This document shows, piece after piece, positions 22,289 through 43,958 of a stretch of 64,000 nucleotides of DNA (its first letter is position 1; each line of letters opens with the position of its first letter). Position numbers and translations under genes: made by a program. The notes below the pieces were generated by a model. It did no database searches and had not been told where the DNA came from. It saw only the letters and a list, made by a program, of their open reading frames with translations. This stretch comes from Candidatus Micrarchaeota archaeon (GTDB lineage Archaea; Micrarchaeota; Micrarchaeia; Micrarchaeales; CABMGC01). The stretch covers positions 7,666 through 71,665 of the forward strand of contig JAJZJV010000002.1 in assembly GCA_021809925.1 (NCBI GenBank). Direction: 5' to 3'.

Positions 22289-22666
22289 TTATCTGGAGCT
22301 CTTCCTTTTTTTTATCTTCTTTGCTTTTTCCAGATCGAGCTTTGGCATGTAGTTCATCAACGACAAAATGTAAAGAAAAGCGATCACAACCAGTCCTGCA
22401 ATGAATGCGGCTATTGTATGGGATATGAATACCATCAATATGAAGAATATTAGGCCCAGTGCAATGTAGAGTCTCTCTCTTAACTCGAATTTGTCCCTGC
22501 TCTTTTTGTATAGAGAATAACATGACGAACATACGACTAGAACATTGTTCTTCTCATTCTTTGTCACATTTCTCTTGAACCACCTTATACCCTTTATGAC
22601 GATATCGTACTCTATTTCTATTCCCTTCTTCTCTTTTCCGCAGACTATGCAATAACTCTTTGACAT
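22289..22666 (-). CDS. Membrane-anchored zinc-ribbon protein (last gene of the cluster)
   Basis: CIVCGKE ... CSSCYSLY (CxxC-x36-CxxC) is followed by two hydrophobic helices and a Lys-rich tail. Its stop codon directly abuts the convergent aminopeptidase stop. Confidence 0.55.
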   Translation of the reverse strand: MSKSYCIVCGKEKKGIEIEYDIVIKGIRWFKRNVTKNEKNNVLVVCSSCYSLYKKSRDKFELRERLYIALGLIFFILMVFISHTIAAFIAGLVVIAFLYILSLMNYMPKLDLEKAKKIKKRKSSR

Positions 22667-22676
22667 TCGATACCAC

Positions 22677-22973
22677 CTATTCTATATCGAGATCAACTAC
22701 CCTTCCCAGAGTACCCCTTATTTTCTCCTCGTCAAGTATGTTCAGCACGCTTGTTATCGCGATATCTTCTATCCCCATACGCCTCAAGACATTGGTTATA
22801 TCTTGCTGCTTGAGCCCCAGCTTTTGAAGCATGCTGGCGAATGATACAACATTCACATGGCGGTGCATCTTATTCATGGAGCTCAAGAGCTCTTCTATGC
22901 TCTTATCGCTTATTCCAAGCTTTGTGAGTATCTTTTTTATATCAATTCTGCTTATTATGAAGGTTTCTCCCAA
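22677..22973 (-). CDS. Small soluble helical-repeat protein
   Basis: Repeated LGISDKSIEELL / LGLKQQDITNVL / MGIEDIAITSVL modules. Related modules occur in the C-terminal tail of the upstream ATPase. Confidence 0.5.
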   Translation of the reverse strand: MGETFIISRIDIKKILTKLGISDKSIEELLSSMNKMHRHVNVVSFASMLQKLGLKQQDITNVLRRMGIEDIAITSVLNILDEEKIRGTLGRVVDLDIE

Positions 22974-22983
22974 TTATAACGCC

Positions 22984-24489
22984 TCATGTTATGAAGGTGA
23001 ATATCCTGGTGATTAGTATATCTGAAATACCTATGCTTCTCAGAAACTCCAGTATGAGATCCTTGTTGACATTATCCCTTATCAGTGCCTGAACCAAAAG
23101 CCGGATATCAACAAGGCCGCTCTTTGCGTCCATCTCCTTAAATACCTTCTCAATTATTCCTGAGCCAAGGTTTATTTCTACCAATTTGGAGTTCATCTCC
23201 ATCTTGCTAAACGTGTATTCCTTTTGTATAGCCGTGTTGTTCAGCTCGTCCTGATTGAGTATCTCTGCAACAGTTATTGTATACATATCCAAAGGTATCT
23301 CTCCTACAACCTTGTCAAGTATGAAAATATCTGGGAATTGAACGCTGGTGTGGAAAGACATGTCTATTGCTGCTTGTCCGACCCCGAACTTGCTTATCTC
23401 TGACCTTATAAACTGCGAGAAGTTAAGCGATCCTTGAAGGTAATTCATGAACTTTTCAAACCTGACCCTAAGCATTATTGTAGTTCCGACATTTGAGAAG
23501 ATCGCTTCGTTTATATCAGTAGGGTTTTGCGATGCTACTATTAGCCCAAACTGGTATTTTCTTCCTTCCCTTACAATCATTACCGCGTCGCTTCTATCAT
23601 CCCCTGCAATCTTCCACGCCTCGTCAAGCACTATTATAGCTTTGAGCCCTTTGGATGCACTCCAACCCTCGGCCCTCATCTTTTCCTTTAAGGTTTGCAA
23701 TATGAACAATGCTGCCATGGCCCTAAACTGTTCATCAGGAAGACCTGAAAGATCTATTGATACAAGGCCAGATGTGGAAAGCTTTCCCAGATCTATTGTG
23801 CTCTTCTTAGCAAAGAAGTCTTCGCCCTCCCTTGAGAATTGCCTTAGCCTATAAATTGCATTTTCTAGCTCTGCTGGATATTGATAGGTGTTTTCCTCAA
23901 GCTTTTCTTCCAGCAACGCAACGACATCTTTTATTGTGGGTGCATCTTTCTTAGGGTCAGGAGGGTTGGCAATGTCGAATCCGGCATTAAGATAGGATTG
24001 CTCTATAGCTTCTGCAGTTAATCTGCGCTGCTCTGGATAATTTGAGATGTCAGTCAATATGTCAAATGAATTCATGATCTGCTTCGTTCTGTCAAGAGGC
24101 TTCATTCCCGAAAGATCCATTATATTTATGAAATCTCCCTTCGCGAGTGATACAACTGTGCCTCCGCTCTGCCTCACCCATGCCTTATACTCACCAGCCC
24201 AATCAATTATTATGGCGTTTGTGTTCCAGATATAGCTTGCGCGTATCAGGAAGGTCTTAATCAGGAAGGACTTTCCAGCACCAGTTATCCCAACTATCGC
24301 AAGATGTGGATTTGTCAGAGATGCAAAAGTCCAAGTGAACGGAACCTTGAATAGTTTTGTTATGCCTATGAATATAGAATCTGTAGGATCGTTTAGCAGG
24401 AACTCGAAAGGAGGCTCTGGGGGCCTGCTGAAGAATGCTCTTTTTGCGAGCTCATTACTCATAACATTTTGGATCCTAAGAAGTGTCAT
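22984..24489 (-). CDS. P-loop ATPase of the VirB4/TrbE/CedB (AAA_10/DUF87-like) type, short form (501 aa)
   Basis: Walker A is NPHLAIVGITGAGKSF and is followed by NAIIIDWAGEY. Walker B is KAIIVLDEAWKI and is followed by REGRKYQFGLIVASQNPTDI. It lacks the long N-terminal domain of the ~800-aa bacterial VirB4. Confidence 0.75.
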   Translation of the reverse strand: MTLLRIQNVMSNELAKRAFFSRPPEPPFEFLLNDPTDSIFIGITKLFKVPFTWTFASLTNPHLAIVGITGAGKSFLIKTFLIRASYIWNTNAIIIDWAGEYKAWVRQSGGTVVSLAKGDFINIMDLSGMKPLDRTKQIMNSFDILTDISNYPEQRRLTAEAIEQSYLNAGFDIANPPDPKKDAPTIKDVVALLEEKLEENTYQYPAELENAIYRLRQFSREGEDFFAKKSTIDLGKLSTSGLVSIDLSGLPDEQFRAMAALFILQTLKEKMRAEGWSASKGLKAIIVLDEAWKIAGDDRSDAVMIVREGRKYQFGLIVASQNPTDINEAIFSNVGTTIMLRVRFEKFMNYLQGSLNFSQFIRSEISKFGVGQAAIDMSFHTSVQFPDIFILDKVVGEIPLDMYTITVAEILNQDELNNTAIQKEYTFSKMEMNSKLVEINLGSGIIEKVFKEMDAKSGLVDIRLLVQALIRDNVNKDLILEFLRSIGISDILITRIFTFIT

Positions 24490-24525
24490 ACTCTCATATA
24501 TCTTATTAGATATTACATATTAATA

Positions 24526-25350
24526 TTATTTCTGTGTCTGGAATATTTTGCTTAACTCTTTCTTTCCTAGCAGCGCATAATTAAATTTATACATATAGTA
24601 AAGCTCCCTCCCAACTATACGCATTATATTGAGGTCAAATGAATTGAAGACTGTCTGGAGTTCGTTTATTTGGTTCTCCATTGAGTCTACAGCTTCCTTC
24701 TCGCTTACGCCTACTGCTGTAGTTTCTATGTACATAAGGCTGTTAACTGGGCGCTCCCCTGCAGATATTCTCTCAATCCTTGTCTGAACTATGCTTATCC
24801 TCCTTTGAAGATCTTCAATTGTCATCTGGTTTGCATTCTGGCTCTTCATCTCTTTTGAGAGCTGGAATTCCAGGAAACCTCTCTGTCCCTCAAGATCGCT
24901 CCTGTAGCTCTGTATGTCCTGCGCCGCAGTTATCACATTGAACCTGAATGGAAAGTCTATGCTCATCAATAGTCTTTCCCATTTCTCAGACGAAGATGCG
25001 AGATTCGCTTCTTCGTTTGCTTCAGGATTTTCTGCGGCAAATATATAGTTGTAGATGTTGGCTGTGAGGTAACCAGTGGCATAATATAGCCCGTTTGTGT
25101 ATTTAATCACAGACTTTTGGTCCTTAGGTATTATGAAGTTCCTGCCAGGAATTATTGTGATCCTTAGCACCGAGGTAAAAAGGGGAAATAGTATGAAGTC
25201 TGCATAGTTTATTGCGAGGTTTATTATTATCGTTAGTATAGCTAGTATTATAACTATTATAGAGAATTCTCCATAGCTGGAAGCAGTGGTCACAAGTGCC
25301 AATGCGAGTAAGGCAGTCACACCCAAGTATACCACATCTTCTATGTCCAT
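24526..25350 (-). CDS. 2-TM anchor plus soluble alpha/beta domain protein (274 aa), paralog A. Candidate VirB3/VirB4-N-terminal-like.
   Basis: Two N-terminal hydrophobic helices, then ...VIKYTNGLYYATGYLTANIY.., a helical segment and ..LMYIETTAVGVSEKEAVDSMENQINELQTVF. It has the same architecture and length as the next gene. Confidence 0.55.
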   Translation of the reverse strand: MDIEDVVYLGVTALLALALVTTASSYGEFSIIVIILAILTIIINLAINYADFILFPLFTSVLRITIIPGRNFIIPKDQKSVIKYTNGLYYATGYLTANIYNYIFAAENPEANEEANLASSSEKWERLLMSIDFPFRFNVITAAQDIQSYRSDLEGQRGFLEFQLSKEMKSQNANQMTIEDLQRRISIVQTRIERISAGERPVNSLMYIETTAVGVSEKEAVDSMENQINELQTVFNSFDLNIMRIVGRELYYMYKFNYALLGKKELSKIFQTQK

Positions 25351-25354
25351 AGTA

Positions 25355-26182
25355 TCACATCCCTTCAGTTCTTGTCTTCATCCTCTCACTTATCGTGCTA
25401 AGTGGTATCCTTGCATCTGGCTCAACGAATAATGCAAGCTCTTCGCCTTTGATTAAGTATGCGGTCACGCCCAATATCGAGCTTATTCCTGAAGCCAACT
25501 CCTCTGCTTGCTGATTAGATAAGCTTACTGCTTCCTCCTCGTTTCCACCAATAGCTGTCACCATTCCAAATGAGACGAGCGTCTGTGACTTGGTCTCGCT
25601 GATGCTGTCGGAAAGGTTCCGCCACATTGTGACCTCGCCTTTTGCTCGGTCCAGTGCTGTTGGATTCTCTACTCTTTTCGCTAGCGCATCGTTATATCTT
25701 CCCTCTGCTTCGTTGAGCTTGGTCTTAATTTTATTAATGTACTCATCTTTGTTTACCATGTACATCTGAGTAGCTATCTTTATAGGAGTCTTTGATAGAG
25801 TTAGTACACGGCCAAAAAGCCTTGAGAAATCTAGCTTCTCCTGGTCGTTCATCTCTGTAGACGATCTGTAGATTGGAATCTTTACAAATGTACTTGCGTA
25901 AACGTCGTCTTCGCTCCTTGTTATTATGGAGGTTCCTGAAGATGCCATTGTAAAAGGATCATCGTTATCCAGTACTATTGCGCCCCCCTTCATCCTGAAT
26001 AATGGACCTAGGAGATATAGGTAATATCTTGTCGAAAATGCCAAGATGTCTATCATAAGTATGATTATCGCAATTATGAACTTAATCGCTGTGCTGATCT
26101 GGAGAGTGCTAGTTATAAGGATGAGAAAGGCGGCAACGCCTACCAAGATTATGAAGATTATGCTTCTAAAGTTGAATGCCAA
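25355..26182 (-). CDS. 2-TM anchor plus soluble alpha/beta domain protein (275 aa), paralog B
   Basis: Two N-terminal helices, then ..IITRSEDDVYASTFVKIPIY.., a helical segment and ..LVSFGMVTAIGGNEEEAVSLSNQQAEELASGI. It is collinear with paralog A. Confidence 0.55.
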   Translation of the reverse strand: MAFNFRSIIFIILVGVAAFLILITSTLQISTAIKFIIAIIILMIDILAFSTRYYLYLLGPLFRMKGGAIVLDNDDPFTMASSGTSIITRSEDDVYASTFVKIPIYRSSTEMNDQEKLDFSRLFGRVLTLSKTPIKIATQMYMVNKDEYINKIKTKLNEAEGRYNDALAKRVENPTALDRAKGEVTMWRNLSDSISETKSQTLVSFGMVTAIGGNEEEAVSLSNQQAEELASGISSILGVTAYLIKGEELALFVEPDARIPLSTISERMKTRTEGM

Positions 26183-26223
26183 GCAAAACGCCCTCTCTTA
26201 CAGATACTGCATTTATAAACTAT

Positions 26224-27330
26224 TTATATGTTTGCTGTCAGCCTTCTTGAGGTCTGTGCCATCCCTCCTATCAGATTTGATATTGTTAGTATAGAAAAGT
26301 ATGTTATTGCAAGGTTCAATGCCGGGAAGAAGAGCACCGATATCCAGAAAGAGCTCATCGCTGTTTTGACATCTGCTATTTGAGTCACTAGAGGGGAGCT
26401 TGGTGAGACAGTCCCTGGGGGGAAGTTGCAGACCAAGCTACCCGTTGTTGGATTCTGTGAGCAATCGCTAAACTTGTTAAGGTTAACTGCAGCATTGTTA
26501 AGGCTCGTTATTGAGCTCTGGCTCGTAAAGTAAAAAGAGATAGAAAAGAGCATTGGCATTATTAGGTAGAACCCTATAGCAACTGCAACCATCATCCCAC
26601 CCATGCTTCTTGTCGGCAATAACGCACGAAATATTATTCCAGGTATGAGAAATACAGGTATTGCAGCGTACATCAAGAACAATATCAGATAATATTCTAT
26701 ATAGAGCACCATCAGCCCGTCTATTAGCAGTATTGCTATGGTTACAGAGGGATTGACCAAAAAAAACAATAGAGGATATTGGAGTGGCTTTGGTATATGC
26801 CATTCATGCTGATTTGGAAAATAAATAAGTATGTCAAGTTTCAATGTAGAAACATAATATGCATCGTTCTCTATATAAAAGAGATTTGAGAGTACATTGT
26901 CAGTAGAATTGATAGTCTGGCTGATATAGCTTAGAGAGGTGTTATACGGGTTTATCGGGCCTGTGACAATGCTTGGAAGGATGCCGAACATGGTGGAAGA
27001 GATGTAAAGGAAAAATGTCACTATGAGCGTTGTTGCTATAGCCTCATAGAATTCCCCAATGCCATAAGTTCTTACCCTATCGCTATTGAATATTACCCCA
27101 ACCAGGAATATTAGTGTGGCTATAGTAAATGAGAATAATATTGCAACAACTGCGATAGGAGCCCAGTTGTTCCAACTTTTCACTACTGACTGATTTATCT
27201 GACTGCAATACCACGGTGCCAGGGCGTTGACAGTGCCGGCTGTGCTGCAGTAGCTAAACAAGTCTGCGTGCACATTGTTTAGCAGCATTGTTGTAAAGAG
27301 AATTGCAGCAATAATCATGCTTTTCTTCAT
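26224..27330 (-). CDS. Polytopic membrane protein, member 6 of a six-gene tandem paralog family (VirB6-like topology)
   Basis: Sec-type signal peptide MKKSMIIAAILFTTMLLNNVHA. Topology is TM1-TM2, a large Cys/Asn-rich loop, then 4-5 more TMs. The family motif is degenerate here: FRALLPTRSMGGMMVAVAIGFYLIMP. Confidence 0.65.
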   Translation of the reverse strand: MKKSMIIAAILFTTMLLNNVHADLFSYCSTAGTVNALAPWYCSQINQSVVKSWNNWAPIAVVAILFSFTIATLIFLVGVIFNSDRVRTYGIGEFYEAIATTLIVTFFLYISSTMFGILPSIVTGPINPYNTSLSYISQTINSTDNVLSNLFYIENDAYYVSTLKLDILIYFPNQHEWHIPKPLQYPLLFFLVNPSVTIAILLIDGLMVLYIEYYLILFLMYAAIPVFLIPGIIFRALLPTRSMGGMMVAVAIGFYLIMPMLFSISFYFTSQSSITSLNNAAVNLNKFSDCSQNPTTGSLVCNFPPGTVSPSSPLVTQIADVKTAMSSFWISVLFFPALNLAITYFSILTISNLIGGMAQTSRRLTANI

Positions 27331-27338
27331 TTTTGCAC

Positions 27339-28430
27339 CTAAACCAAAGTTGTTAATATTGATAAGAAATCAAGCCTTTCGCCTATTGCTTGCGAGAAAT
27401 CCAATACGAATGTATCTATTATTACAAAATTAAGTAAGGGTATAAATGTTAGCCCAACACCTATGAACCCAGCATATATTAGAATCCCTTCCTTAAACGA
27501 TTCATATAGTATGATTAGCAGAGCTACAAGAGATGGAGACACTATGTAGGATGTTGCCCAAGAAGGCAAAATGCTTGATATGGTAGAGCTTGCTATTATA
27601 CTAGCATAAGATGCGAAGACTGTTCCTAGGAGTACAGGTATGTTAATGCCGCTGTGTGCTATTCCATAATCAATAACACCATATGTTATTCCTGCTAGAA
27701 TTGGGTATATTATTCCAATTCCGAATGCCAGCGCGATCATCGCTCCACCAAATGTCCTGGTTATCCCAAACGATCGTGATATGAGCCCAATAGCCATAAG
27801 TATTGAGAATATGAGTACGGATGAACTAAGTATGAGGAGTTGCACCTGATTTAGGATTATGGTCAAAAATACAAGTCCATATAAAGGGCCGTAGAATGTT
27901 ACTACTGGATTTAGATTCTCAGGAGACAATGATATAGTATATTGTATGCTTACGCTTCCAGGGTGAATGGAGATAACTCTTTGTGGACTTATGGAGGCCA
28001 ATATTGATACATAGTATACCAGAAGATTAAGTTCCCCAACATTATGGTTGAATTGTTTAAGGTTGCATATGCTTATCACATAGAAGTTATTAACTGCAGG
28101 ATTATCGCAACTTCCAGTGACCATCCCGAAATTTGAGAAGATCTGGTGCGGATCTGCTATTATTATTGAGGTGGAAAATGCGGCAAAGATTAATATTAAA
28201 ACTATTGACAGGAGCAATTCGTATATCTTTATTCGTATCCAGTTGCGTATATCACTTCTTCCCATCAGTGGGCTTAATGCATAGACTATTCCAAAGATTG
28301 AGATTATTGCAATAACCGCAGATATAACCACCGGAAACCAGGAAGTATATGGAGACGTCAGGAAATTGCATATGCTACCGAGAGGACTGATGCCTCCCGT
28401 GCATCCACTTACTAAAAGACTTGGAATCAT
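27339..28430 (-). CDS. Polytopic membrane protein, family member 5
   Basis: Family motif ISRSFGITRTFGGAMIALAFGIGIIYP with the same topology. There is a 1-nt overlap with the upstream gene. Confidence 0.65.
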   Translation of the reverse strand: MIPSLLVSGCTGGISPLGSICNFLTSPYTSWFPVVISAVIAIISIFGIVYALSPLMGRSDIRNWIRIKIYELLLSIVLILIFAAFSTSIIIADPHQIFSNFGMVTGSCDNPAVNNFYVISICNLKQFNHNVGELNLLVYYVSILASISPQRVISIHPGSVSIQYTISLSPENLNPVVTFYGPLYGLVFLTIILNQVQLLILSSSVLIFSILMAIGLISRSFGITRTFGGAMIALAFGIGIIYPILAGITYGVIDYGIAHSGINIPVLLGTVFASYASIIASSTISSILPSWATSYIVSPSLVALLIILYESFKEGILIYAGFIGVGLTFIPLLNFVIIDTFVLDFSQAIGERLDFLSILTTLV

Positions 28431-29644
28431 TATATCAGCTTGTTGAAGAGCGTCTTGCTCTTGAGGGATGGCGACCCTAATATATCTCCTAATTGCTCCA
28501 TCAGATCAAAAGATATTATAAACGCTATTATTATGCCTAACAGTTGCAATCCAATAAAAGTTATGTTATTTACAAACTGGTCAGCGTTGGCACTAAGCGC
28601 ACCGCCGAAATTCAATGGAATAAACGTTTTTATAAGAGTGTAAAGTGCATTCGCCCCAATTTTAGAATTGGTAGTGAAACTTGATAGCAAATTATTAGAA
28701 TTGCATAAGGTCGTTAATGCTGAGCTCGGCGAGGTGCCCGCGCAGAGTATATTGGTGCTTGATTGAAGCGTTGAAGAGAGTGAGATAAACGGATAAAGCA
28801 CTGCAGGAAATATTATATAGAACGAGATAAATAATGCAATCATAGACCCGCCTGCTGCTCTTGTCCATGGAAATGATCTCAGGAGAAGACCAAGATATAG
28901 GAATAAGGGAAATAAGAAGTAAATAAGCAGCAGGAGTATGATAACTGCAAAACTCAGTGTTACTACAAGGGAAAATGAGCTGCTTTCTAGTATTATCATC
29001 TTTTGTATTACGTCTGTTCCTTCTAAAGGCCTGAAGCTGAAGCCAGGATTAATATATGCAGGTAAATAAGATACTCCGCCGCCATTTGCAGTCAGGTCTA
29101 TCTGAATGCTCTGCATAAGCTGGAGCGGCAATATAAATAATGAAAGACCAATAATGTTCTGCAATGAGTTGTCTATCGTGCCATAATAGCCATTGCATAT
29201 GCTTACATACATGGCATTCGTGCTTGTCACGGGGGCGACGTTGTAAGATTGAAGACCAACGGAAGTAATTGATGACAAGAATGTCATTATGGTGTCAGTC
29301 CCACTTATCCCCCCCACTATGAGAATCACTATAAGAAGATTCGCAAAACTCTCCATGTATTCAGACTTTACGAAAGCTTTCAATTTCTCTATACCAAAAG
29401 CCATCCCCACCATATAAATAATTCCTAAGACAGTTAGGACGGTAAGTATGACAAGCATTGTAATGCTGATCATCTCTGAGTAGGTTGAGCCCCTTGACAA
29501 AGAGGTATTAATAAAAGTATTAGAGCTGCTAAAGAGGTTGTTGCATGACGGAAAGAGCGCAGTGCTTATGAAGCCGGCCGCATGGGATAGGTTAGGGATT
29601 AATGCAAGGCATATGAGAAGCACAAGATAAAAATATTTTTTCAT
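28430..29644 (-). CDS. Polytopic membrane protein, family member 4
   Basis: Signal peptide MKKYFYLVLLICLALIPNLSHA. Family motif LLLRSFPWTRAAGGSMIALFISFYIIFP. Confidence 0.65.
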   Translation of the reverse strand: MKKYFYLVLLICLALIPNLSHAAGFISTALFPSCNNLFSSSNTFINTSLSRGSTYSEMISITMLVILTVLTVLGIIYMVGMAFGIEKLKAFVKSEYMESFANLLIVILIVGGISGTDTIMTFLSSITSVGLQSYNVAPVTSTNAMYVSICNGYYGTIDNSLQNIIGLSLFILPLQLMQSIQIDLTANGGGVSYLPAYINPGFSFRPLEGTDVIQKMIILESSSFSLVVTLSFAVIILLLLIYFLFPLFLYLGLLLRSFPWTRAAGGSMIALFISFYIIFPAVLYPFISLSSTLQSSTNILCAGTSPSSALTTLCNSNNLLSSFTTNSKIGANALYTLIKTFIPLNFGGALSANADQFVNNITFIGLQLLGIIIAFIISFDLMEQLGDILGSPSLKSKTLFNKLI

Positions 29645-29648
29645 GTTA

Positions 29649-31127
29649 TCACAATAGCCTGCTTAATCCGAGCAGAGATGTATTACCGCCAAACAATGAG
29701 GACAGACCCATTATTGACGTTATTATTATAAGTAAGTTCAATATTGGAAGTATAAATCCGATTACAGAATCTATTCCATAAACATGTAGTATTGCAAGTA
29801 GCGAGTTTAGGGCTTCTGTGGGGTGACAATTAAAGTAACCATATGGAGGCATTGCTGGAGAGATCCCTCCAAGATGGGATGAGCCGAATGAAGAAATGAC
29901 TGCGAGCACCGCTCCGCCGCCAGTAACTGCGCCAGATAGAGGGAAGGTGTAGTAAGCAACTAATTTCAGCTCTGCTGAGAGGAGTCCTGTTGAGCCGGGA
30001 AGGCCCGATGGCCAGCATCCATTATAATTTATGGCTTCTGCAAGGTTTGGTATTACAAAGAAATTTGGAGTATAATGAGGACAGGTCTTTGGATCCCCGA
30101 TAATGCAGGTATTATCATTGAATGGTTTATAGTACAGGGACATTGAAGGAATTAAACTCGCACCCACAGGTTTGATAGATGGACTTGTAAGGGAGGTATA
30201 TTCAAAAATAAAGAATATTGGATATATTATAACCATTACTATGCTTATGGCCATTAATAAGCCGCCAACCTTTCTTGTCAAGAAAGATGAGTGCAGTATT
30301 ATGCCACCTGCCAAGAGATATGGCCAGATATATATGAACAGAATAATAAACAGGAGAATGAATGAGGAGAGATAAAATAATAAGTATGCCTGTGCTTCTA
30401 TCATCTTCGTGCCTCTCAGCATCATATAATAACCTACAAATGGTTCATAGGTATATACACTCTCAAATGCAAATCCCTCTCTTGGGATTATGCAGCTCAA
30501 TGGCACTAGTGGTTCGCATATGCCTACTCTGGCATCGAGCTCTCGCAGGAATGCCATATAGTTCTCAAATATATAAAGGGAGTTAAGATTTGCAGCAGTT
30601 TGATTAGTTATGTTTGCATTAAGTATGTATGCAGCCGATAATCCATAATCTATATTAGTTGCTATGTGGGGGTTTGGAGAAGCAGCTGCCGCTTGTGCAT
30701 TAGGTATCTCGATGTTGCAGATAGTATTTGTTGGATATCCGCTTAAAATGTCGAGTGGGGAGCCTTTGAAATTATTAATCGAGGATGGTACAAGATAAGT
30801 ATTACATATGTTTGCTAATGAGCTCGGAGGGATTGAATAAAATGTCGATAGAGAGGATGTTCCGAATGTATATAAAATGCCTACAAGTATTACAACGATT
30901 ACTGTCAGGCCTATTATCTGGCCGAATTCAGTTATTGCATTTGCTTTTATCCGCTTATTTCCCAACACTGCGCCGAGTAGGTAGTACATGCTGACCAGAG
31001 AGGCACTTGCCATTATTGCGGCCATTATAACAGGGAGCCAATTCTGGAATTCAGAGTATGGGGTGAATATGCTTTGGGCTAACACCACAGAAGGAATGAA
31101 TGCGGATAGGAGTAGTATGCTTTTCAT
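29649..31127 (-). CDS. Polytopic membrane protein, family member 3 (largest, 492 aa)
   Basis: Signal peptide MKSILLLSAFIPSVVLA. Family motif ILHSSFLTRKVGGLLMAISIVMVIIYP. The extracytoplasmic loop is expanded. Confidence 0.65.
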   Translation of the reverse strand: MKSILLLSAFIPSVVLAQSIFTPYSEFQNWLPVIMAAIMASASLVSMYYLLGAVLGNKRIKANAITEFGQIIGLTVIVVILVGILYTFGTSSLSTFYSIPPSSLANICNTYLVPSSINNFKGSPLDILSGYPTNTICNIEIPNAQAAAASPNPHIATNIDYGLSAAYILNANITNQTAANLNSLYIFENYMAFLRELDARVGICEPLVPLSCIIPREGFAFESVYTYEPFVGYYMMLRGTKMIEAQAYLLFYLSSFILLFIILFIYIWPYLLAGGIILHSSFLTRKVGGLLMAISIVMVIIYPIFFIFEYTSLTSPSIKPVGASLIPSMSLYYKPFNDNTCIIGDPKTCPHYTPNFFVIPNLAEAINYNGCWPSGLPGSTGLLSAELKLVAYYTFPLSGAVTGGGAVLAVISSFGSSHLGGISPAMPPYGYFNCHPTEALNSLLAILHVYGIDSVIGFILPILNLLIIITSIMGLSSLFGGNTSLLGLSRLL

Positions 31128-31132
31128 TTCTA

Positions 31133-32281
31133 TTAACCCCAGAAAGGACCTATCCCCATTATTCTGGATACTGAGCTGAGGCCTCCTGCAAGGCCTTGGA
31201 CAAAACCCAACGTTATTGCAAAGTCCAATCCAAGAAGCACAATTCCCTGGAATAAGTATTCTGCAACGCTGAAACTTGCTTGCTGCATTGCTATTGGCAT
31301 TGTGAATAGAGAAAGTATGCTAAGTGGCGAACTCGCTCCGAAAATGTTGGCGAAGAAGGATATAGAACCGCTATAACCTGTTGTTTGCCAACCCCCGTTG
31401 GTCGAGAACAAGAAACTTGTAGGGAGAGATGTAAGAGTATCTGTCTTAATGTATGTTGAGTAGTATGGATTACATATTGTCGTATTTTGACAATACATCC
31501 AATTTATTATCGCACTGTTCAAGACTATTGTCAATGGAAATACAAAATAGAGGCCTATGCTTATTGCTAAAAGAATGTTTGCTGATTCCCTCAACCTTGG
31601 ACCTGTGAAAGAGAGTGATCTCAGTATTATAGAGATTGGGATCAATACGGCTAATGCTGCTGAAGCGATGAGCGGAAGTAGGATATATATTAAAAGAAGC
31701 ATGCCGAAGGTTGCAGTTACAAGGCTCATCATTGAACCAACATATATGTCTGCGTATGAGTAGAAAAGATTTGGCAGATTAGCAGAGAAAGAAAGTTTGC
31801 TGCCTCGGCTTGACATTGCCGCGAGGTTCTGAATTAAGAAATCCTGGGTAAGAATATCAGTAGCAGTACCTGCCAATAACACATTTATTGTATCTGCAAA
31901 TAATGTTGTTGTTAGTTTCTGACCCTGCACGAAGAGAAGAGAAGAGATATAATTCTCTGAAAATTGTATAGGATCATAGGTCTTGGTTGAGCTGTAGGTT
32001 AATGATGATACAACAGTGCAGGAAAATGTTGAGAAAGTTATCAATAGTATTATTATGAGTATGCTTACTATACCTTCAACTGCCTCGTATCTGACAATTC
32101 CTCTTAATTTTTCCCTGTTTATGAATGGAAGGATACCGCTCAGAGAATAAAGAAGAGATCCAATCATCATCGTTGCCATTACTACGAGAATGCTGATGCT
32201 TATCCAATCATTCCTGTTTATCGTGCCAAAATTGCAGCTTTGCTGAAAAATGTTCGGTGTCAGTAAGGCCAAGAGCATCAT
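31133..32281 (-). CDS. Polytopic membrane protein, family member 2
   Basis: Family motif variant IILRSLSFTGPRLRESANILLAISIGLYFVFP. There is a 4-nt start/stop overlap with the upstream gene. Confidence 0.6.
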   Translation of the reverse strand: MMLLALLTPNIFQQSCNFGTINRNDWISISILVVMATMMIGSLLYSLSGILPFINREKLRGIVRYEAVEGIVSILIIILLITFSTFSCTVVSSLTYSSTKTYDPIQFSENYISSLLFVQGQKLTTTLFADTINVLLAGTATDILTQDFLIQNLAAMSSRGSKLSFSANLPNLFYSYADIYVGSMMSLVTATFGMLLLIYILLPLIASAALAVLIPISIILRSLSFTGPRLRESANILLAISIGLYFVFPLTIVLNSAIINWMYCQNTTICNPYYSTYIKTDTLTSLPTSFLFSTNGGWQTTGYSGSISFFANIFGASSPLSILSLFTMPIAMQQASFSVAEYLFQGIVLLGLDFAITLGFVQGLAGGLSSVSRIMGIGPFWG

Positions 32282-33492
32282 ACCAACCTCAGCTTTGATC
32301 CTAAGCTTGTAACGACACCGGTTGAGCTGCCGAGCATTCTGGCTATTGTATCCATTAGAGGTATTGCTATGGCTAGATCAAGTATAAATAACACAAATTG
32401 GGCTACCAGATTAACCGTATGGTAAACTAGATCATTTATTGTTGGATATATGGAGTAGAGTGCAGATAAGCCAATAACTATTGAGGTGGTTGATATGCCC
32501 ATATTGGTTAAAACAGTTGTATATCCATTCACAACTGAACATAGGATGCCTGAGGTGCATGATGGGGAGGATGGCGTGGTTGGACCATGGAAAGCGGTGT
32601 TGAGTACATTTGTCACAGGGGCATTAAGAATCACGAGAAGAGAGGGATAGATTATTGAGATGCCTATGCCTATTGCGATTAGCACGCCCCCAACGCCTCG
32701 AACGAATGGAAATGATCTTAGTATTAAGCCTATTGGGATTACTAAAAGCAGACCAATTTTCACAATATATGGCAATAGTGCCATCTCGCTCCCTATTATC
32801 ACAGATATTGGAAATAGAACGATTACTATAGTATCAGATAATATTGATTCGTAATTCCTTACAGTAATGCTATATGGTGTAAGCATCTCGTTTGTTAGAC
32901 CAGCCGGTGTGAATGCGACACCAGTTATCAAATATGGTAGTGGAATGCCATCAGGATAAGGAATTGGCGGAGTCGGGTCATAGTATTGTATAGTTAAAGA
33001 AGTTAATGCACCTATGCCGATACTCAACCCACCTACAGCATCGTAAGCGCAGGCTAGGTTGTTGTCGACCCCAGTTAAGTATATCTCGCCAGAATTTACC
33101 AACCCTGCCAAGTTTGATGAATACGAGCTTGAAGGCGTTTGTCCACTTATTATCACAGCCATGCTGCTCATGAATAGCAATATAGAAAATATGCTTGCTA
33201 TCAAGATCATTGTTTTCGCTATCTCGTAGTATTCTCTTTCTATCCATCCCCTAAGCCCAGCGCCGGAAAAGATCTTGCTTATTATGTAGCCTATGGCAAC
33301 TACATCTATTGAGAGAGTTAGTGCTATCAGTGATACAGCTATTGCTTCATTATATACAGATCCAGGTATTGTGATTGTTGTTTTAATAGGTGATCTTAAT
33401 GAGCAAGAAGTAGCAGCAGATACCAGACTTGGCAGTAAGGCGATTAGCACCATAAAAATGCAGGCTTTGTTAAGAGCCATCTCATCATACAA
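32278..33492 (-). CDS. Polytopic membrane protein, family member 1
   Basis: Signal peptide MALNKACIFMVLIALLPSLVSA, so the start may be the Met at 33480. Family motif LILRSFPFVRGVGGVLIAIGIGISIIYP. Confidence 0.65.
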   Translation of the reverse strand: MYDEMALNKACIFMVLIALLPSLVSAATSCSLRSPIKTTITIPGSVYNEAIAVSLIALTLSIDVVAIGYIISKIFSGAGLRGWIEREYYEIAKTMILIASIFSILLFMSSMAVIISGQTPSSSYSSNLAGLVNSGEIYLTGVDNNLACAYDAVGGLSIGIGALTSLTIQYYDPTPPIPYPDGIPLPYLITGVAFTPAGLTNEMLTPYSITVRNYESILSDTIVIVLFPISVIIGSEMALLPYIVKIGLLLVIPIGLILRSFPFVRGVGGVLIAIGIGISIIYPSLLVILNAPVTNVLNTAFHGPTTPSSPSCTSGILCSVVNGYTTVLTNMGISTTSIVIGLSALYSIYPTINDLVYHTVNLVAQFVLFILDLAIAIPLMDTIARMLGSSTGVVTSLGSKLRLV

Positions 33493-33537
33493 TATTGGTA
33501 ATGGAAACTTATAATACTTCTCTTTTCTGGCAGCATA

Positions 33538-34320
33538 TCAATGTCTTAGCAGAGGGAATCTTTTCATATACGCTTCTGCCTGAAGTATCACAAAATAAGG
33601 CATTATCAGCAAAGAAGTTATTATAAGAACAACATATCTTGATAGGAGAGTACCTGTTATGCCTATAGCAAGTACGTCAAGTATCGATATAGATAGGGTA
33701 GATAATAGAAGCCAGCCGACAAAGTATACTGGCTCCCGGTATATTAGCTTTGTGCTGTCCTTTATCGAACGGAAGACTCGCTTATCGTCAACAACTATTG
33801 CGCTTGGAACGTAGAATATGATTAGGAATGCAATAAATCCTACAATGGAAGTTAAAACTCCGCCAAGCGAAGGAAGGTAGTAGCTTGCTATGATATTGGT
33901 AGCTACCACCACCAAAGCATATGCCAGCAGAACCACAAATACCCTTGAGATGTACTTTTCTATATCTCTAAGCACACTTCCAGCTATTTTTGTGTGTGTA
34001 CGCTTAGATTTGACTATTAGACTTATTGCAACGAAAGCAAAACTCAAGAAGAGAAGAGAGAAGAACACTGAGAATATTATAACGGATATGCTTATTGGGT
34101 TCGTGTTAATGAATATGCTTGCGCTTCTTAGGAATATGCCACCAGCAGTCATGTAGGTAGGAAGTGGGGCAAATAAAGGTATCGCCACAGCAATTATGAA
34201 GGGTATAGAAAACAGGAGCACTAGCTTTAAATTCTGAAAGTATGTCTCTAGGGAATCAGTGAGGACATTTCCCATTATTGCACCATTTGATATACTGCGT
34301 CTCAATAAATAAAAAGCCAT
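33538..34320 (-). CDS. Polytopic membrane protein (260 aa), unknown function
   Basis: At least 6 hydrophobic segments. There is a 1-nt spacer to the upstream gene. No motif was recognised. Confidence 0.5.
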   Translation of the reverse strand: MAFYLLRRSISNGAIMGNVLTDSLETYFQNLKLVLLFSIPFIIAVAIPLFAPLPTYMTAGGIFLRSASIFINTNPISISVIIFSVFFSLLFLSFAFVAISLIVKSKRTHTKIAGSVLRDIEKYISRVFVVLLAYALVVVATNIIASYYLPSLGGVLTSIVGFIAFLIIFYVPSAIVVDDKRVFRSIKDSTKLIYREPVYFVGWLLLSTLSISILDVLAIGITGTLLSRYVVLIITSLLIMPYFVILQAEAYMKRFPLLRH

Positions 34321-34321
34321 A

Positions 34322-36223
34322 CTATTGGCTGCTTTTGTTGTAGACAGGATTGCTTACATAATAATAATCATTGTTGTATAAGATTGCAGAAAATGGCCCA
34401 GTTGTGTATGGTCCAACCATGTATTTAATCCTAAGAGGATACGTGTCGCTGCTCTTATTTAAAATTATTTTATTAATATTTATAGTGCATTCTAAAGAGA
34501 CGCATGTGTTGCTTTTGTTTATGATACTCTCATTTATAAACCCGTAAAAACCAAATGTGCTGTTGCTGACCCCAATAGTAGAAACATAAATAGTATTGTT
34601 TGTCAGATTATTGTAACTAATTGTGGCATTGTAGTAAATGTAATTTCCATTTATTGCCAGATCTTGGTTCTTTAGTGATATATTGAAGTTGTGAGTATAT
34701 TGGTTGTGTGATCTGATTATAATTGCAGTTGACGCTAGGATAATAAATAACATAGTAATAGCCAAAGCAGGCGTTGCATATCTTCCGATTCTCTCTTTTA
34801 CTATCCCAGGTCCTTTGTTTACGTTCTTTGAGTATAAGGCAAAGACAAAGAAGAAGGAGAACATGCTAAAGTAGGAGATTAGTGCGTGAGATAGAAGTAA
34901 GAAAGGAACCATGCTAAATAGAGGTATTAGCTCTTTCTTATTTATATAAATTAAGAGTATTGCTAAGGCAATTATAGACAAATAGAAGAGTTTTGAGAAT
35001 ACAAGCATGGTGATATGGTAACTGGTCAGTAACGAGAATCCAAGGATTGCTGCGCCGCTTGGCATAATTAATGAACTTACCGGAGCGAATACAGAACTCC
35101 AGTATATTCCCGGATTTATTATTATAACATAGGAGTTTATCAGGAAGAAGACTGCCAAGGCCCCAAGTATATTAAACGCTCCTCTCTTTAATCCCTGATT
35201 ATTAATCATGTATATTATAAAGAATATCACGGGAATCCATAATTCCTCTTGTATCGCGAGTGCTATGCCTAGAAGGATAAATGCATATTTTTTGTCCAGC
35301 TTTGAGTAGGTGATAAGCAAAAGCGTGAGCATTATATATACGGGCAAGGATGCTACAAACGCTATTGAAATTATAAAAAATAATATTAGTGAATATCTGG
35401 GGGAGAGATTCTTCTCATCATGCAGAAGGATTGTTGCTGTAATTATAAGCAGGAATAAGAATATTGCAGCTTCGAGACTCATGTCAATATGGGAAAGGTT
35501 GTGAAGAGTCATGCTAGAGATTAGATAAAATGGCGCTGAGATCAAAGGATACAGCGCAGGATATTCCAGAGAACCCATTATTTTATTGTTTGTTGTGATT
35601 GTCACTCCTATAGTACTGACATTGCCTAGTAGAAAATTTGAGAAGGAAAGGGCATATGGATTAGTGCTATTCAGCAAGGACTTTATGCTTAAGAAGGATA
35701 TCACGGTCTCGTCGTCTACAGAGTACCTTGTAAAGACATGGCCAGATAAGAAATAGAATAGCAATATAACCAATATTAATGCATAAAGAATTAAGGCAAT
35801 TTTGTAGCTTCTTTTGTGAAGGAAATACGCAGCAAATGTAGCAATGAAAAGCAATGGGAGCAATATAACTAGATATGTGCCTATGTTCTCTAAGAGATAA
35901 AGTAGGGTTTGTATAAGACCGGAAGAAATGCTGTTGCCTAGAACATATAGGTAATATATGAAAAGTAGGATTAATATAAGGAATAAGATATTTAGTATAA
36001 GCTTGGTTGCTTTCTTACTTATGCTTCTTCCTTTTGTGTTCCCTTGTTTATTATCACGTAATGAGATAAGAGATGCAACTAAGTAGATCAATGAAATGGA
36101 TATGTATAGCGAGGCTACAAACCTTGCAATTGGCACTAGGAATAGTGAATAATAAGATAAAGCAATTGTGATGAGGAAGAAGAATAATATTATAAATATT
36201 TGAGATTTAGAATTAAGTCGCAT
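34322..36223 (-). CDS. Large polytopic membrane protein with a sequon-rich C-terminal ectodomain. Possible GT-C-fold glycosyltransferase.
   Basis: About 480 aa of TM helices including LEYPALYPLISAPFY. A ~120-aa tail follows with many N-x-S/T sequons (NISL, NATI, NLTN, NNTI, NSTF, NESI, NKSN, NKSS). The GT-C call is weak and pattern-level only. Confidence 0.45.
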   Translation of the reverse strand: MRLNSKSQIFIILFFFLITIALSYYSLFLVPIARFVASLYISISLIYLVASLISLRDNKQGNTKGRSISKKATKLILNILFLILILLFIYYLYVLGNSISSGLIQTLLYLLENIGTYLVILLPLLFIATFAAYFLHKRSYKIALILYALILVILLFYFLSGHVFTRYSVDDETVISFLSIKSLLNSTNPYALSFSNFLLGNVSTIGVTITTNNKIMGSLEYPALYPLISAPFYLISSMTLHNLSHIDMSLEAAIFLFLLIITATILLHDEKNLSPRYSLILFFIISIAFVASLPVYIMLTLLLITYSKLDKKYAFILLGIALAIQEELWIPVIFFIIYMINNQGLKRGAFNILGALAVFFLINSYVIIINPGIYWSSVFAPVSSLIMPSGAAILGFSLLTSYHITMLVFSKLFYLSIIALAILLIYINKKELIPLFSMVPFLLLSHALISYFSMFSFFFVFALYSKNVNKGPGIVKERIGRYATPALAITMLFIILASTAIIIRSHNQYTHNFNISLKNQDLAINGNYIYYNATISYNNLTNNTIYVSTIGVSNSTFGFYGFINESIINKSNTCVSLECTININKIILNKSSDTYPLRIKYMVGPYTTGPFSAILYNNDYYYVSNPVYNKSSQ

Positions 36224-36257
36224 GCTTATTACTACTCAACAAAATTTAAGTAGAATA

Positions 36258-36280
36258 TAAAAGAAAAAAAAGAAAAAAAG
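36258..36280 (-). terminator. Oligo-T transcription terminator downstream of the pilin-like gene
   Basis: The minus strand reads TTTTTTTCTTTTTTTTCTTTT. It begins 17 nt after the TGA at 36297-36299. Runs of at least 5 T are the known archaeal termination signal. Confidence 0.6.
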
Positions 36281-36296
36281 AATATCTCAGTGCTAA

Positions 36297-36671
36297 TCAG
36301 CAACCTGAGATACTGCTTATTGAGCTTCCGAAGCCGGCAACCGTTGTTACGATCCATGGTGCTGCCAATACGAGTATTAACCCTATTATGCCACCCATAA
36401 TCATACCAAGAGACCATCCTTGTAGACCGCTTCTCAAATTACCTGCAGCAGGCAGGAAGTGAGCCGCAGCATAAAGAACGCCGCCTACTACGAACAATAC
36501 TAGCGCGAATATGCCTACGACAGTTCTTACAGTATTTACTATATTACATAGATTGCTAGTGAGAAGATTTACTGAACTCTGTGCAGACAGTGACAGGCCT
36601 AGTAAATTCGCTACTACGCCACCTATGAAGACTAGATATATTGCTAGTCTTATTTTTTTGCTTATCTCCAT
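36297..36671 (-). CDS. VirB2/TrbC-like pilin candidate (124-aa precursor)
   Basis: Signal peptide is MEISKKIRLAIYLVFIGGVVANLLGLSLSA. It is followed by QSSVNLLTSNLCNIVNTVRTVVGIFALVLFVVGGVLYAAA (helix 1). Next come the short loop HFLPAAGNLRSGLQGWS and LGMIMGGIIGLILVLAAPWIVTTVAGF (helix 2), with a Ser-rich C-terminus ending in Cys. This is the two-helix hairpin layout of VirB2-type pilins. Confidence 0.55.
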   Translation of the reverse strand: MEISKKIRLAIYLVFIGGVVANLLGLSLSAQSSVNLLTSNLCNIVNTVRTVVGIFALVLFVVGGVLYAAAHFLPAAGNLRSGLQGWSLGMIMGGIIGLILVLAAPWIVTTVAGFGSSISSISGC

Positions 36672-38950: not shown

Positions 38951-38976
38951 TGTGGAAGTGTTCTGTGAAGTTGTTA

Positions 38977-39669: not shown

Positions 39670-39691
39670 AGTACCATCAACATGCACTGAA

Positions 39692-43843: not shown

Positions 43844-43958
43844 TGCCAAACAACAATATGCGTTCCCACCCTAAGGCAGTATTTCATATCGTGAACAGGC
43901 TTAGCTTCCGAGTTCGGAATGGGTTCGGGCGTTTCCCTGCTCCTGTGGTCGTTTGACA
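43844..43958 (-). rRNA. rrf: 5S ribosomal RNA (orphan, not linked to 16S/23S in this window)
   Basis: The minus strand reads UGUCAAACGACC...GAACCCAUUCCGAACUCGGAAGCUAAGCC...GUUGUUUGGCA. The conserved loop/helix core CCGAAC.CGGAAG.UAAGC is present. The termini pair over 11 bp including two G-U pairs. Ends are accurate to about 3 nt. Confidence 0.9.

Follow-up and report, generated by a model that had tools for sequence, protein, structure and literature searches.

A conserved gene train of Micrarchaeota probably encoding a conjugation-derived membrane machine with a split VirB4/CedB-type motor

A stretch of 64,000 nucleotides from Candidatus Micrarchaeota archaeon (GenBank assembly GCA_021809925.1, contig JAJZJV010000002.1, positions 7,666 to 71,665), called the window throughout, carries a train of 14 minus-strand open reading frames (ORFs) between 22289 and 36671, which we examined as a candidate membrane machine derived from a type IV secretion system (T4SS). 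The train was compared with fetched loci of relatives and with metagenomic loci (L001 to L041). Its genes, and the one spacer that is discussed below, are as follows in train order (TM, transmembrane).

36297..36671, minus strand: VirB2/TrbC-type pilin candidate, 124 aa, with a signal peptide, two hydrophobic helices and sub-threshold TrbC and T4SS_pilin matches
36224..36296, minus strand: spacer after the pilin gene, with oligo-T runs and then the TATA-like TTTATATT, as read from the sequence
34322..36223, minus strand: polytopic protein, 633 aa, about 12 TM segments and an N-x-S/T-rich extracellular domain at the C-terminus; its gene is co-conserved with that of the pilin
33538..34320, minus strand: polytopic protein, 260 aa, 50–59% identical to its orthologs, bridging the pilin module and the paralog train
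32278..33492, minus strand: polytopic paralog 1 of 6, 404 aa, recognised by paralogy and its own 1:1 orthologs, first in the kept order
31133..32281, minus strand: polytopic paralog 2 of 6, 382 aa, by paralogy and 1:1 orthologs
29649..31127, minus strand: polytopic paralog 3 of 6, 492 aa, its extracellular insert enlarged, by paralogy and 1:1 orthologs
28430..29644, minus strand: polytopic paralog 4 of 6 (g28430), 404 aa, the member modelled with AlphaFold2, by paralogy and a 104-sequence alignment
27339..28430, minus strand: polytopic paralog 5 of 6, 363 aa, by paralogy and 1:1 orthologs
26224..27330, minus strand: polytopic paralog 6 of 6 (g26224), 368 aa, the best conserved of the six (40–45% identity to orthologs)
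25355..26182, minus strand: detached VirB4/CedB-type N-terminal domain, copy 1 (g25355), 275 aa, two TM segments and a soluble domain, assigned by hhalign
24526..25350, minus strand: detached VirB4/CedB-type N-terminal domain, copy 2 (g24526), 274 aa, two TM segments and a soluble domain, a paralog of copy 1
22984..24489, minus strand: VirB4/CedB-type P-loop ATPase lacking an N-domain of its own, 501 aa, with a C-terminal extension of about 95 aa
22677..22973, minus strand: soluble protein, 98 aa, a free copy of the ATPase C-terminal domain, assigned by hhalign
22289..22666, minus strand: zinc-ribbon protein, 125 aa, CxxC...CxxC in the N-terminal part and a TM hairpin at the C-terminal end, from its sequence and weak zinc-ribbon matches

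An earlier interpretation of this DNA, made without database searches (the sequence-only reading), had described these 14 genes with spacers of −4 to 92 nt. The genes and their coordinates stand and the range does not, as the genes of the train are spaced by −4 to +73 nt and the 92-nt spacer is the gap to the next upstream gene (728 aa, 36764–38950), outside the train. On one side the train is flanked by genes for topoisomerase IA, a VIT1 transporter, a PLD-like protein, peroxiredoxin and an M1 aminopeptidase, and on the other by genes for a GT2 glycosyltransferase, a MoxR ATPase, DUF655, an HhH-GPD glycosylase and a polyprenyl synthase; these family assignments bear out the earlier description of both flanks as housekeeping.

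The 501-aa ATPase contains all of the VirB4/TrbE-style motifs previously read from its sequence, namely GITGAGKSF (Walker A), IIVLDEAW (Walker B) and REGRKYQFGLIVASQNPTD. It thereby shows the Walker A, DEAW-type Walker B and downstream Arg/Gln sensor expected of an FtsK-HerA-class P-loop domain. Three Pfam families match it above their cut-offs: DUF87 (3e-17), AAA_10 (4e-14; 53 bits against a cut-off of 27.5) and P-loop_TraG (1e-9; 37.7 bits against 25.8). The NCBIfam E-values are 2e-18 for CedB, 5e-18 for CedD, 5e-18 for VirB4 CD1110, 1e-17 for Mycoplasma-type VirB4, 3e-17 for TraC and 2e-15 for HerA; alignments to CedB, VirB4 and TraC extend across the entire P-loop domain (residues ~36–370), whereas those to HerA take in only residues ~236–397. 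A similar picture is obtained with structures in the PDB, where the VirB4 C-terminal domain (4ag5) is aligned over residues 57–328 and HerA-type chains over ~240–390, with E-values to the HerA-type structures 8wiv and 4d2i comparable to those for VirB4. In a tblastn search of 72,556 plasmids, the ATPase matched at least 5000 records, and 4694 of the best 5000 are predicted to be conjugative. The plasmid genes under these matches are TraC, VirB4-like genes of the CD1110 family, VirB4 component-like genes or DUF87 (23–26% identity over residues 39–410), and phage genomes gave only three marginal matches.

An exhaustive search of 1.84 billion representatives returned 78 relatives of the ATPase below 1e-30. 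After the short DPANN-type forms, the nearest are proteins of ~870–910 aa (31–34% identity, E 1e-43 to 1e-49), whose top family is CedB (3e-34 and 7e-42, profile positions 72–587 of 590), well above VirB4 and HerA. The genes before these long relatives encode CedA1-like (9e-16) and CedA-like (6e-23) proteins, which precede the long ATPase in about 15 of the 26 fetched loci of this class, including all those with enough upstream sequence. Because the VirB4, CedB and TraC alignments extend over the whole domain, the plasmid matches are to TraC and VirB4, and the nearest long relatives sit in Ced-like loci, we assign the 501-aa ATPase on sequence grounds to the VirB4/CedB kind, with its closest outgroup in Ced-like systems.

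The same comparisons bear on the alternative that there is no single machine here, and that a membrane-tethered HerA/FtsK-like pump serving the cell's own chromosome segregation, division or repair lies beside unrelated envelope proteins. HerA models and structures do give E-values similar to those of VirB4, the JGI annotation of homologs reads 'DNA helicase HerA-like ATPase', and conservation at 70–76% identity resembles that of a housekeeping gene. However, the HerA alignments are limited to the Walker B/sensor part of a domain that VirB4, CedB and TraC cover throughout, the N-domain described below is of the CedB type and not a HerA HAS-barrel, and no NurA, Mre11 or Rad50 gene lies nearby, so that we consider this alternative unlikely. 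The P-loop core of the FtsK-HerA superfamily is indeed shared with HerA-NurA and with HerA-like defence ATPases, but the protein studied here lacks the HAS-barrel, is accompanied by no NurA, Sir2 or other nuclease partner, and would be tethered via the CedB-type N-domain proteins. An ATPase that resolves cleanly as HerA-NurA or FtsK type without VirB4/CedB affinity, which would have spoken against the sequence-only reading, is not what we found, the HerA models covering the C-terminal part only. HerA-NurA identity in the strict sense was rejected from the domain scan (no HAS-barrel N-domain) and the neighbour scan (no NurA, Mre11 or Rad50).

The motor appears to be divided among several polypeptides. 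The 275-aa and 274-aa proteins preceding the ATPase gene each have two N-terminal TM segments and match no Pfam or NCBIfam family. Nevertheless, the family profile of copy 1 (g25355) aligns with the N-terminal 300 aa of the ~900-aa CedB-like ATPases (hhalign Prob 96.9%, E 1.9e-10, 229 columns), in line with the earlier proposal of separate N-domain-like proteins beside a short ATPase. The two were also said to be paralogous, and this holds at the profile level only (Prob 95.3%, E 2e-8, 253 columns; BLAST E 0.38). Orthologs of g25355 occur in 11 of 11 relatives, and g24526 is the closest match to the lone N-domain protein of two minimal systems, L019 and L016 (Prob 99%, E 1e-17 to 1e-18). The membrane-anchored N-domain specific to VirB4/CedB ATPases is therefore present, in trans; since g25355 matches the CedB-like N-terminus and g24526 is its paralog, the anchor would be encoded separately and twice.

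Furthermore, the 98-aa protein aligns with residues 405–501 of the ATPase (Prob 95.7%, E 1e-8, 72 columns) and has tblastn-detected orthologs in all 10 relatives whose locus passes the ATPase (L003, L007–L015), although in L008 and L015 it may escape a nested-ORF listing. In these 10 relatives, the 125-aa zinc-ribbon protein is 45–57% identical to that of the window, and the five genes are kept in one order, with N-domain 1 first, then N-domain 2, the ATPase, the C-domain copy and the zinc-ribbon protein. From these sequence relationships we describe the VirB4/CedB-family motor polypeptide as split into two N-domain genes, a P-loop gene and an extra C-domain gene.

Upstream of the motor genes, the description of six tandem paralogous polytopic proteins is borne out by BLAST (E 1e-9 to 1e-3) and by profile–profile comparison, in which most pairs reach an hhalign Prob of 82–98% and all are linked via g28430 or g26224. 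They share the motif LRSFxxTRxxGGxMIAxxIxxxIIYP. Each paralog has its own ortholog (31–45% identity), in the same order, in L003, L009, L011–L014, L018 and L021–L023, and because of these same-order 1:1 orthologs the six-fold duplication is, judged by sequence, older than the divergence of these Micrarchaeota lineages. About 100 orthologs of paralog 4 were found, all in Micrarchaeota. Its AlphaFold2 model, built from the 104-sequence alignment (pLDDT 82.8, pTM 0.78), shows a signal peptide and then a helix bundle in which helices of 29–49 residues exceed the membrane thickness; the conserved motif LLRSFPWTRAAGG lies at the turn between helices 208–256 and 259–294.

With 5–7 hydrophobic segments each, the paralogs are polytopic proteins (at least five TM segments) encoded beside a VirB4-type ATPase and a pilin candidate, which is the setting expected of VirB6, TrbL or CedA. 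NCBIfam CedA is matched by 3 of the 104 members of the paralog 4 family (best 2.9e-6) and is the family matched by most members; the six window paralogs and the pilin candidate themselves match neither CedA nor CedA1 of NCBIfam. Four independent paralog families weakly match overlapping positions in the C-terminal half (~139–272) of a CedA-like profile, at E 8e-4 to 2e-2, among them paralog 3 at the conserved motif (E 1.5e-3) and paralog 6 over 127 columns (E 8e-4). Comparison of the window paralogs and pilin with CedA-like and CedA1-like profiles from a scan yielding 25 loci gave no significant match. N-terminal homology of the CedA/CedA1 kind was not detected between the pilin family and the paralog families (E 0.006 or worse, Prob ≤7%). 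VirB6/CedA homology of the six paralogs is only hinted at, and the strongest argument for it is their position in a minimal operon (see below).

The pilin candidate belongs to a small family, with 15 homologs found in all. Its alignment shows a signal peptide ending in A-Q, two hydrophobic helices, a conserved loop LPAAGNLR and a Ser/Gly-rich tail, with C42 and C124 (C-terminal) invariant. A small secreted protein with a signal peptide and two looped hydrophobic helices is what is expected of VirB2/TrbC, although these features are non-specific. In Pfam, T4SS_pilin (1.7e-3; 18.8 bits against a cut-off of 26.6) and TrbC (5.5e-3; 17.3 against 27.9) align with it over nearly their whole profiles. 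Among 14 homologs, TrbC is matched by seven (best 1.1e-4), T4SS_pilin by three and no other family by any; the best relative is the second pilin copy of L001 (TrbC 1.6e-5, 25.4 bits against 27.9). As the sequence-only reading anticipated, the protein models as a two-helix hairpin after the signal peptide (AlphaFold2, pLDDT 77; helices 3–72 and 77–113, turn 73–76), a fold that is non-diagnostic. C42 lies just after the predicted signal-peptide cleavage site and C124 is the very last residue; we speculate that a C42–C124 disulfide would mimic the head-to-tail cyclisation of TrbC and VirB2 pilins. The oligo-T runs, which resemble archaeal terminators, and the TATA-like TTTATATT in the spacer at 36224–36296 suggest, on the sequence, a separate and strongly expressed pilin transcript.

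Two further polytopic proteins accompany the pilin candidate, neither with a recognisable T4SS counterpart. Orthologs of the 633-aa protein (29–35% identity) always follow the pilin gene (L001, L021, L022, L023, L006); the protein matches nothing in Pfam or the PDB, its sole match being to the Wzy-like TIGR04370 (weak, 9e-4). The gene of the 260-aa protein follows those of the pilin and the 633-aa protein in L001 and precedes the six paralogs in L018, L021, L022 and L023, and for neither of the two proteins, nor for their relatives, was a usable Pfam or NCBIfam family found. PDB searches by hidden Markov model (HMM) with pilin, paralog, 633-aa and N-domain profiles gave nothing or coiled-coil noise only. 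Next to this module, at 36764–39687, lie the genes of the 728-aa polytopic protein (no Pfam match) and the GT2 glycosyltransferase; the matching position in L023 holds GT2 and a DUF2079 membrane protein. The two window genes may form a glycosylation module; the pilin tail is rich in Ser and the 633-aa protein in N-x-S/T.

Within Micrarchaeota, the block is co-conserved in relatives, as the sequence-only reading required. In L021, L022 and L023, genes for the pilin (1–2 copies), a ~620-aa and a ~245-aa protein and then the paralogs follow each other on one strand as in the window (six paralogs are visible, the last cut by the locus end), and the upstream flank of L021 and L023 (MoxR, DUF655, Rpb4, L21e, TBP) matches that of the window. 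In L003, L009 and L011–L014, the paralog train continues into the block of N-domain, ATPase and small-protein genes. The ATPase is 70–76% identical over more than 120 homolog clusters, nearly all labelled Candidatus Micrarchaeota, Micrarchaeia or Micrarchaeaceae, and 87% identical in L005, also labelled Micrarchaeota. The closest metagenome-assembled genome, FK_Sedi_A_Bin.208 (L006; 94–97% identity), carries the label Candidatus Marsarchaeota, everything else being labelled Micrarchaeota; this is probably a mislabel by the submitter.

This pattern can be set against the idea of a decayed integrated conjugative element or provirus that was fixed by chance in the genome. VirB4-type ATPases are a signature of conjugative elements, the GC content of the block (0.35–0.42) is slightly below that of the flanks (0.42–0.45), and Golyshina et al. 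speculated on conjugative islands in Mia14 (PMC5498576). On the other hand, the same gene order and housekeeping flanks recur in many divergent Micrarchaeota and the ATPase is conserved at the level just given. A scan of the 14 genes and of the 13 largest flanking ORFs within ~9 kb on either side detected no relaxase, VirD4-type coupling protein, integrase or replication gene, in agreement with the earlier note of their absence; no direct repeats bounding the block were found, and no tRNA in the whole 64 kb (ARAGORN, and Rfam at gathering thresholds). Phage matches are negligible, and the lower GC fits the T-rich codons of membrane-protein genes. We therefore regard a decayed element as very improbable, and the conserved housekeeping flanks support the view that the block is chromosomal and non-mobile. 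A conjugative element proper, with mating-pair formation (MPF) genes and a relaxase, was rejected, as there are no such genes or borders and the flanks are syntenic.

The association of pilin, channel and motor candidates is clearest in L019, a distant archaeal contig that carries Hjc, MCM and SSB and whose ATPase is 35–39% identical to that of the window. Its six-gene operon reads as follows.

L019 gene 1: 80-aa two-helix protein, matching the pilin family at Prob 63%, E 7e-5
L019 gene 2: 329-aa polytopic protein, matching the paralog family at Prob 95.9%, E 5.5e-9
L019 gene 3: 259-aa N-domain protein, Prob 98–99%
L019 gene 4: ATPase
L019 gene 5: 229-aa coiled-coil and winged-helix protein
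L019 gene 6: 213-aa protein

The top NCBIfam matches of the 80-aa protein, which are weak, are TrwL/VirB2 and a Mycoplasma conjugal pilin-like protein. The order of pilin-like, polytopic, N-domain and ATPase genes equals that of CedA1-like, CedA-like and CedB-like genes in ~15 Ced-like loci. Because this minimal operon joins the four genes, we take pilin, polytopic protein, N-domain and ATPase to be one ancestral unit, of which the Micrarchaeota block is an expanded version. Linkage also bears on the chromosome-pump alternative. The modules are unlinked or inverted in some genomes, and in L007, L008, L010 and L015 the ATPase block has no paralogs immediately before it, which speaks for that alternative; against this, L019 has a paralog homolog and a pilin-like gene right before N-domain and ATPase, and the separated modules of L018 still share a contig, a few kb at most lying between them.

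Two more genes come after the ATPase block in every relative, one for a ~240-aa protein (coiled coil and winged helix) and one for a ~790-aa protein (two TM segments, many glycosylation sequons), at 12247–15571 in L003 and also in L007–L015, L016 and L019. The ~240-aa partner is homologous to that of the minimal systems (Prob 99–100%). Between paralog 6 and N-domain 1, a variable gene of 640–800 aa is found in L003 (6297–8216), L009, L011, L012 and L014; the window lacks it and has a spacer of 41 nt there. Its product carries a conserved TM hairpin at the N-terminus (GLNRGYSLFNFFG), followed by Pro/Gly-rich repeats and divergent helical stretches, and could be a specificity or regulatory component. 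The ~240-aa, 640-aa and 790-aa proteins of L003 have sub-threshold Pfam and NCBIfam matches only.

We conclude from the sequence comparisons, with a probability of roughly two in three, that the train encodes a chromosomal, vertically inherited membrane machine of Micrarchaeota that derives from a T4SS or conjugation apparatus and is of the same general kind as Ced and Ted, DNA uptake being the leading guess for its cargo. It would work like Ced and Ted, with which it most probably shares its T4SS origin. The sequence-only reading had matched the component list to the T4SS/Ced/Ted core; this match stands for the VirB4-type ATPase, stands at sub-threshold level for the pilin, and amounts to hints for the VirB6-like paralogs.

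Several results weigh against this conclusion. The ATPase reaches none of the NCBIfam cut-offs (CedB 66 of 700 bits, CD1110 65 of 325, TraC 62 of 567, VirB4_CagE 46 of 643), and no window protein reaches that of any VirB4, CedB, CedA, CedA1 or TrbC model. Neither Pfam TrbL/VirB6 nor another relevant Pfam family matches any of 104 members of the paralog family, the paralog profile has no HMM match in the PDB, and a Foldseek search of the PDB with the paralog 4 model gave nothing significant (best E 0.15, TM 0.17). Against a 15-sequence CedA-like profile the paralogs reach a Prob of ≤24%, while in the same comparison the positive control, CedA1-like protein against the N-terminus of CedA-like protein, reached 96.4%. 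The pilin candidate and its relatives do not reach the gathering score of TrbC or T4SS_pilin, its profile matched no solved pilin among PDB chains (TedC included), and Foldseek of its model against the PDB returned generic helical hairpins only (E 1.7 or worse), the fold being too simple to be diagnostic. In L001 and L002, an MFS gene comes after the module of pilin, 618-aa and 245-aa genes, which has no linkage to the paralog train; in L018, Exo5, AlaRS and CarS come next after the 243-aa gene and the six paralogs, with the ATPase block inverted a few kb away. Finally, the ~240-aa and ~790-aa partners are absent from the 64-kb window (tblastn, HMM search).

The Ced machinery in Sulfolobales and Desulfurococcales (CedA, CedA1, CedA2, CedB, CedD, CedE) resembles the Micrarchaeota machine in being chromosomal, T4SS-derived and devoid of relaxase and coupling protein. 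CedB is the top NCBIfam match of the window ATPase, the nearest long relatives lie in CedA1-CedA-CedB-like loci, and the motor N-domain is membrane-anchored in both. Both have also multiplied channel and motor parts by paralogy: Ced contains the pairs CedB/CedD and CedA/CedE (PMC11868833), and the window six paralogs and two N-domain proteins. In contrast to Ced, the window pilin has a cleavable signal peptide, TrbC/VirB2-like rather than CedA1-like; the paralogs have no profile-detectable pilin-like N-terminal segment, which CedA has; separate genes encode the N-domain, ATPase and C-domain of the motor; the channel candidates are six paralogs, where Ced has one or two; additional partners (the 633-aa, 260-aa and zinc-ribbon proteins) are conserved; and the host lineage is DPANN, not Thermoproteota. 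We rejected a Ced system in the strict sense, given that the equivalog models fall short of their cut-offs and the pilin is not CedA1-like.

By description, the Ted system of Thermoproteales (TedA, TedB, TedC) is likewise a domesticated chromosomal T4SS derivative with a signal-peptide pilin, a polytopic channel candidate and a VirB4-like ATPase, TedC being a VirB2-like pilin with a cleaved signal peptide (PMC9905601). The components are too divergent for recognition at the BLAST level between the systems. Ted loci commonly include HerA, ParA/MinD and Rad50 genes (PMC9905601), which are absent here, and Ted is, again by description, single-copy with an unsplit ATPase. With the bacterial conjugative T4SS core (VirB2/3/4/6; R388, F plasmid), the window shares an ATPase 23–26% identical to TraC/VirB4 over residues 39–410, a pilin candidate aligning end to end with TrbC/VirB2 profiles (sub-threshold), and a small membrane anchor before the motor domain, as in VirB3-VirB4. 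It differs in lacking relaxase, VirD4, VirB11, an outer-membrane complex and any TrbL/VirB6 signal, and in being chromosomal and vertically inherited, not carried on a mobile element.

Ecologically and functionally, there is a close analogy to the T4SS of Patescibacteria and Saccharibacteria, which is lineage-wide in ultrasmall, host-dependent episymbionts and a proposed conduit to the host (PMC12102498, PMC12857230). The Patescibacteria system is essential for epibiotic growth and usually has no relaxase (PMC12102498, PMC12857230). A further likeness is its expanded array of six sequence-divergent paralogs, which in that system are small components. However, the six paralogs of that T4SS are VirB2-like pilins, not polytopic proteins of 360–490 aa, and the system is bacterial, of the MPF-FATA class, with VirB1-, VirB3-, VirB6-, VirB8- and VirD4-like parts and an unsplit VirB4. 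The two machines are probably independent in origin.

We propose that the six paralogs would form a membrane channel in the role of VirB6/CedA, possibly assembled as a hetero-oligomer under a hexameric motor, and that the two N-domain proteins would tether this ATPase hexamer to the membrane. The basic motif loop of the paralogs, assuming that it faces the cytoplasm, may dock onto the N-domains. The 124-aa protein could be pulled out of the membrane and polymerise as a pilus or conduit of the conjugative type, and ATP hydrolysis would power both pilus assembly and the passage of macromolecules while a partner cell is in contact. As to cargo and direction, the leading guess is that DNA is taken up from the Thermoplasmatales host, by analogy, because Ced and Ted import DNA, no relaxase or coupling protein was found, and a cultured Micrarchaeon is auxotrophic for nucleotides; indeed, Mia14 is devoid of purine and pyrimidine synthesis (PMC5498576). 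A contact pilus or a conduit for another cargo is nearly as likely.

The same T4SS-derived machine might, in other words, import no DNA at all, and be an adhesive or contact pilus for host attachment or serve the export or exchange of proteins, lipids or other molecules, a role that has been proposed for the essential T4SS of Patescibacteria (PMC12857230, PMC12102498). The block contains no recognisable part for DNA binding or processing, such as the relaxase, nuclease, ParA or Rad50 found near Ted (PMC9905601), and the Patescibacteria T4SS is essential independently of ComEC-mediated DNA uptake (PMC12857230). The 633-aa and ~790-aa partners carry large extracellular domains rich in glycosylation sequons, and the position of the pilin module beside a type IV pilus locus (L001, L022) and LamG surface proteins points to cell contact. 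Against this, the motor has its nearest relatives in loci resembling those of Ced, which imports DNA; the zinc-ribbon protein in the block and the winged-helix partner in relatives could bind nucleic acid; and cultured Micrarchaeota depend on external nucleotides. Taken as a whole, we find the version without DNA import somewhat doubtful.

As for that neighbourhood, the pilin module stands divergently beside a type IV pilus locus with a T2SSE ATPase and two T2SSF genes (L001 4389–9929, L022 1–9795), and in L022 it is also adjoined by genes for large Laminin_G_3 (LamG) surface proteins. In Mia14, LamG proteins have reportedly been proposed as host-interaction factors.

A bolder version of the machine proposed here is possible, and we hold it tentatively: that it is the DPANN counterpart of the essential Patescibacteria T4SS, a lineage-wide conjugation-derived conduit for DNA, nucleotides or other macromolecules from wall-less Thermoplasmatales hosts, in which the six channel subunits form a pseudo-six-fold hetero-oligomer under a hexameric VirB4 motor made of separate N-domain, ATPase and C-domain proteins. 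If true, the architecture would be unprecedented. Pilus-like or tubular connections have been seen between ARMAN cells and their hosts, and a machine of this description could be their molecular basis.

To our knowledge, no dedicated transfer apparatus has been identified for the supply of nucleotides, lipids and building blocks to DPANN archaea from their hosts. The block offers a concrete, lineage-wide and testable candidate for such exchange of material, and Micrarchaeota can be grown in stable co-cultures (Mia14 with Cuniculiplasma, A_DKE with Scheffleriplasma). It would extend chromosomal, domesticated T4SS-derived systems of the Ced/Ted kind beyond Thermoproteota, and it is set apart by its DPANN host, its split motor, its six channel-candidate paralogs in fixed order and its extra conserved partners. 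The natural dissection of VirB4 into N-domain, motor and C-domain polypeptides could help to explain how VirB4 domains work, and the six-fold subunit diversification parallels the six-pilin array of Saccharibacteria. Our full-text search of the literature turned up no account of a system like this one for Micrarchaeota or DPANN, mention elsewhere being possible. The 'dark matter' paper of Makarova (2014) does not cover it, and Golyshina et al. give only type IV pili for Mia14, with conjugative islands as a speculation (PMC5498576).

The Ced-like loci (L024–L041, from soil and sediment metagenomes, and L017) form a coherent and apparently undescribed class. They encode a CedA1-like protein of 84 aa, a CedA-like protein of ~295 aa, a protein of 65 aa and a CedB-like ATPase of ~900 aa, which ends in a long C-terminal extension; 430-aa and 119-aa proteins are often encoded as well. 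As has been reported for CedA and CedA1 themselves, the CedA-like protein is homologous at its N-terminus to the CedA1-like one (Prob 96.4%). The Ced-like profiles were built from the 25 loci of a metagenome scan with a CedB-like alignment; a scan with a single CedA-like protein gave nothing.

In L018 (GCA_049966915), a stretch of 3.1 kb devoid of ORFs (1870–4970) adjoins the 243-aa gene and the six paralogs on their upstream side, and is presumably a 23S rRNA gene. In the window, a small PLD-family protein with an NgoFVII-like nuclease fold is encoded at 17077–17646 on the plus strand, ~5 kb from the block and beside topoisomerase IA (13513–15789), with no tie to the system established. A stand-alone 5S rRNA gene lies at 43845–43956 on the minus strand (Rfam, 67 bits).

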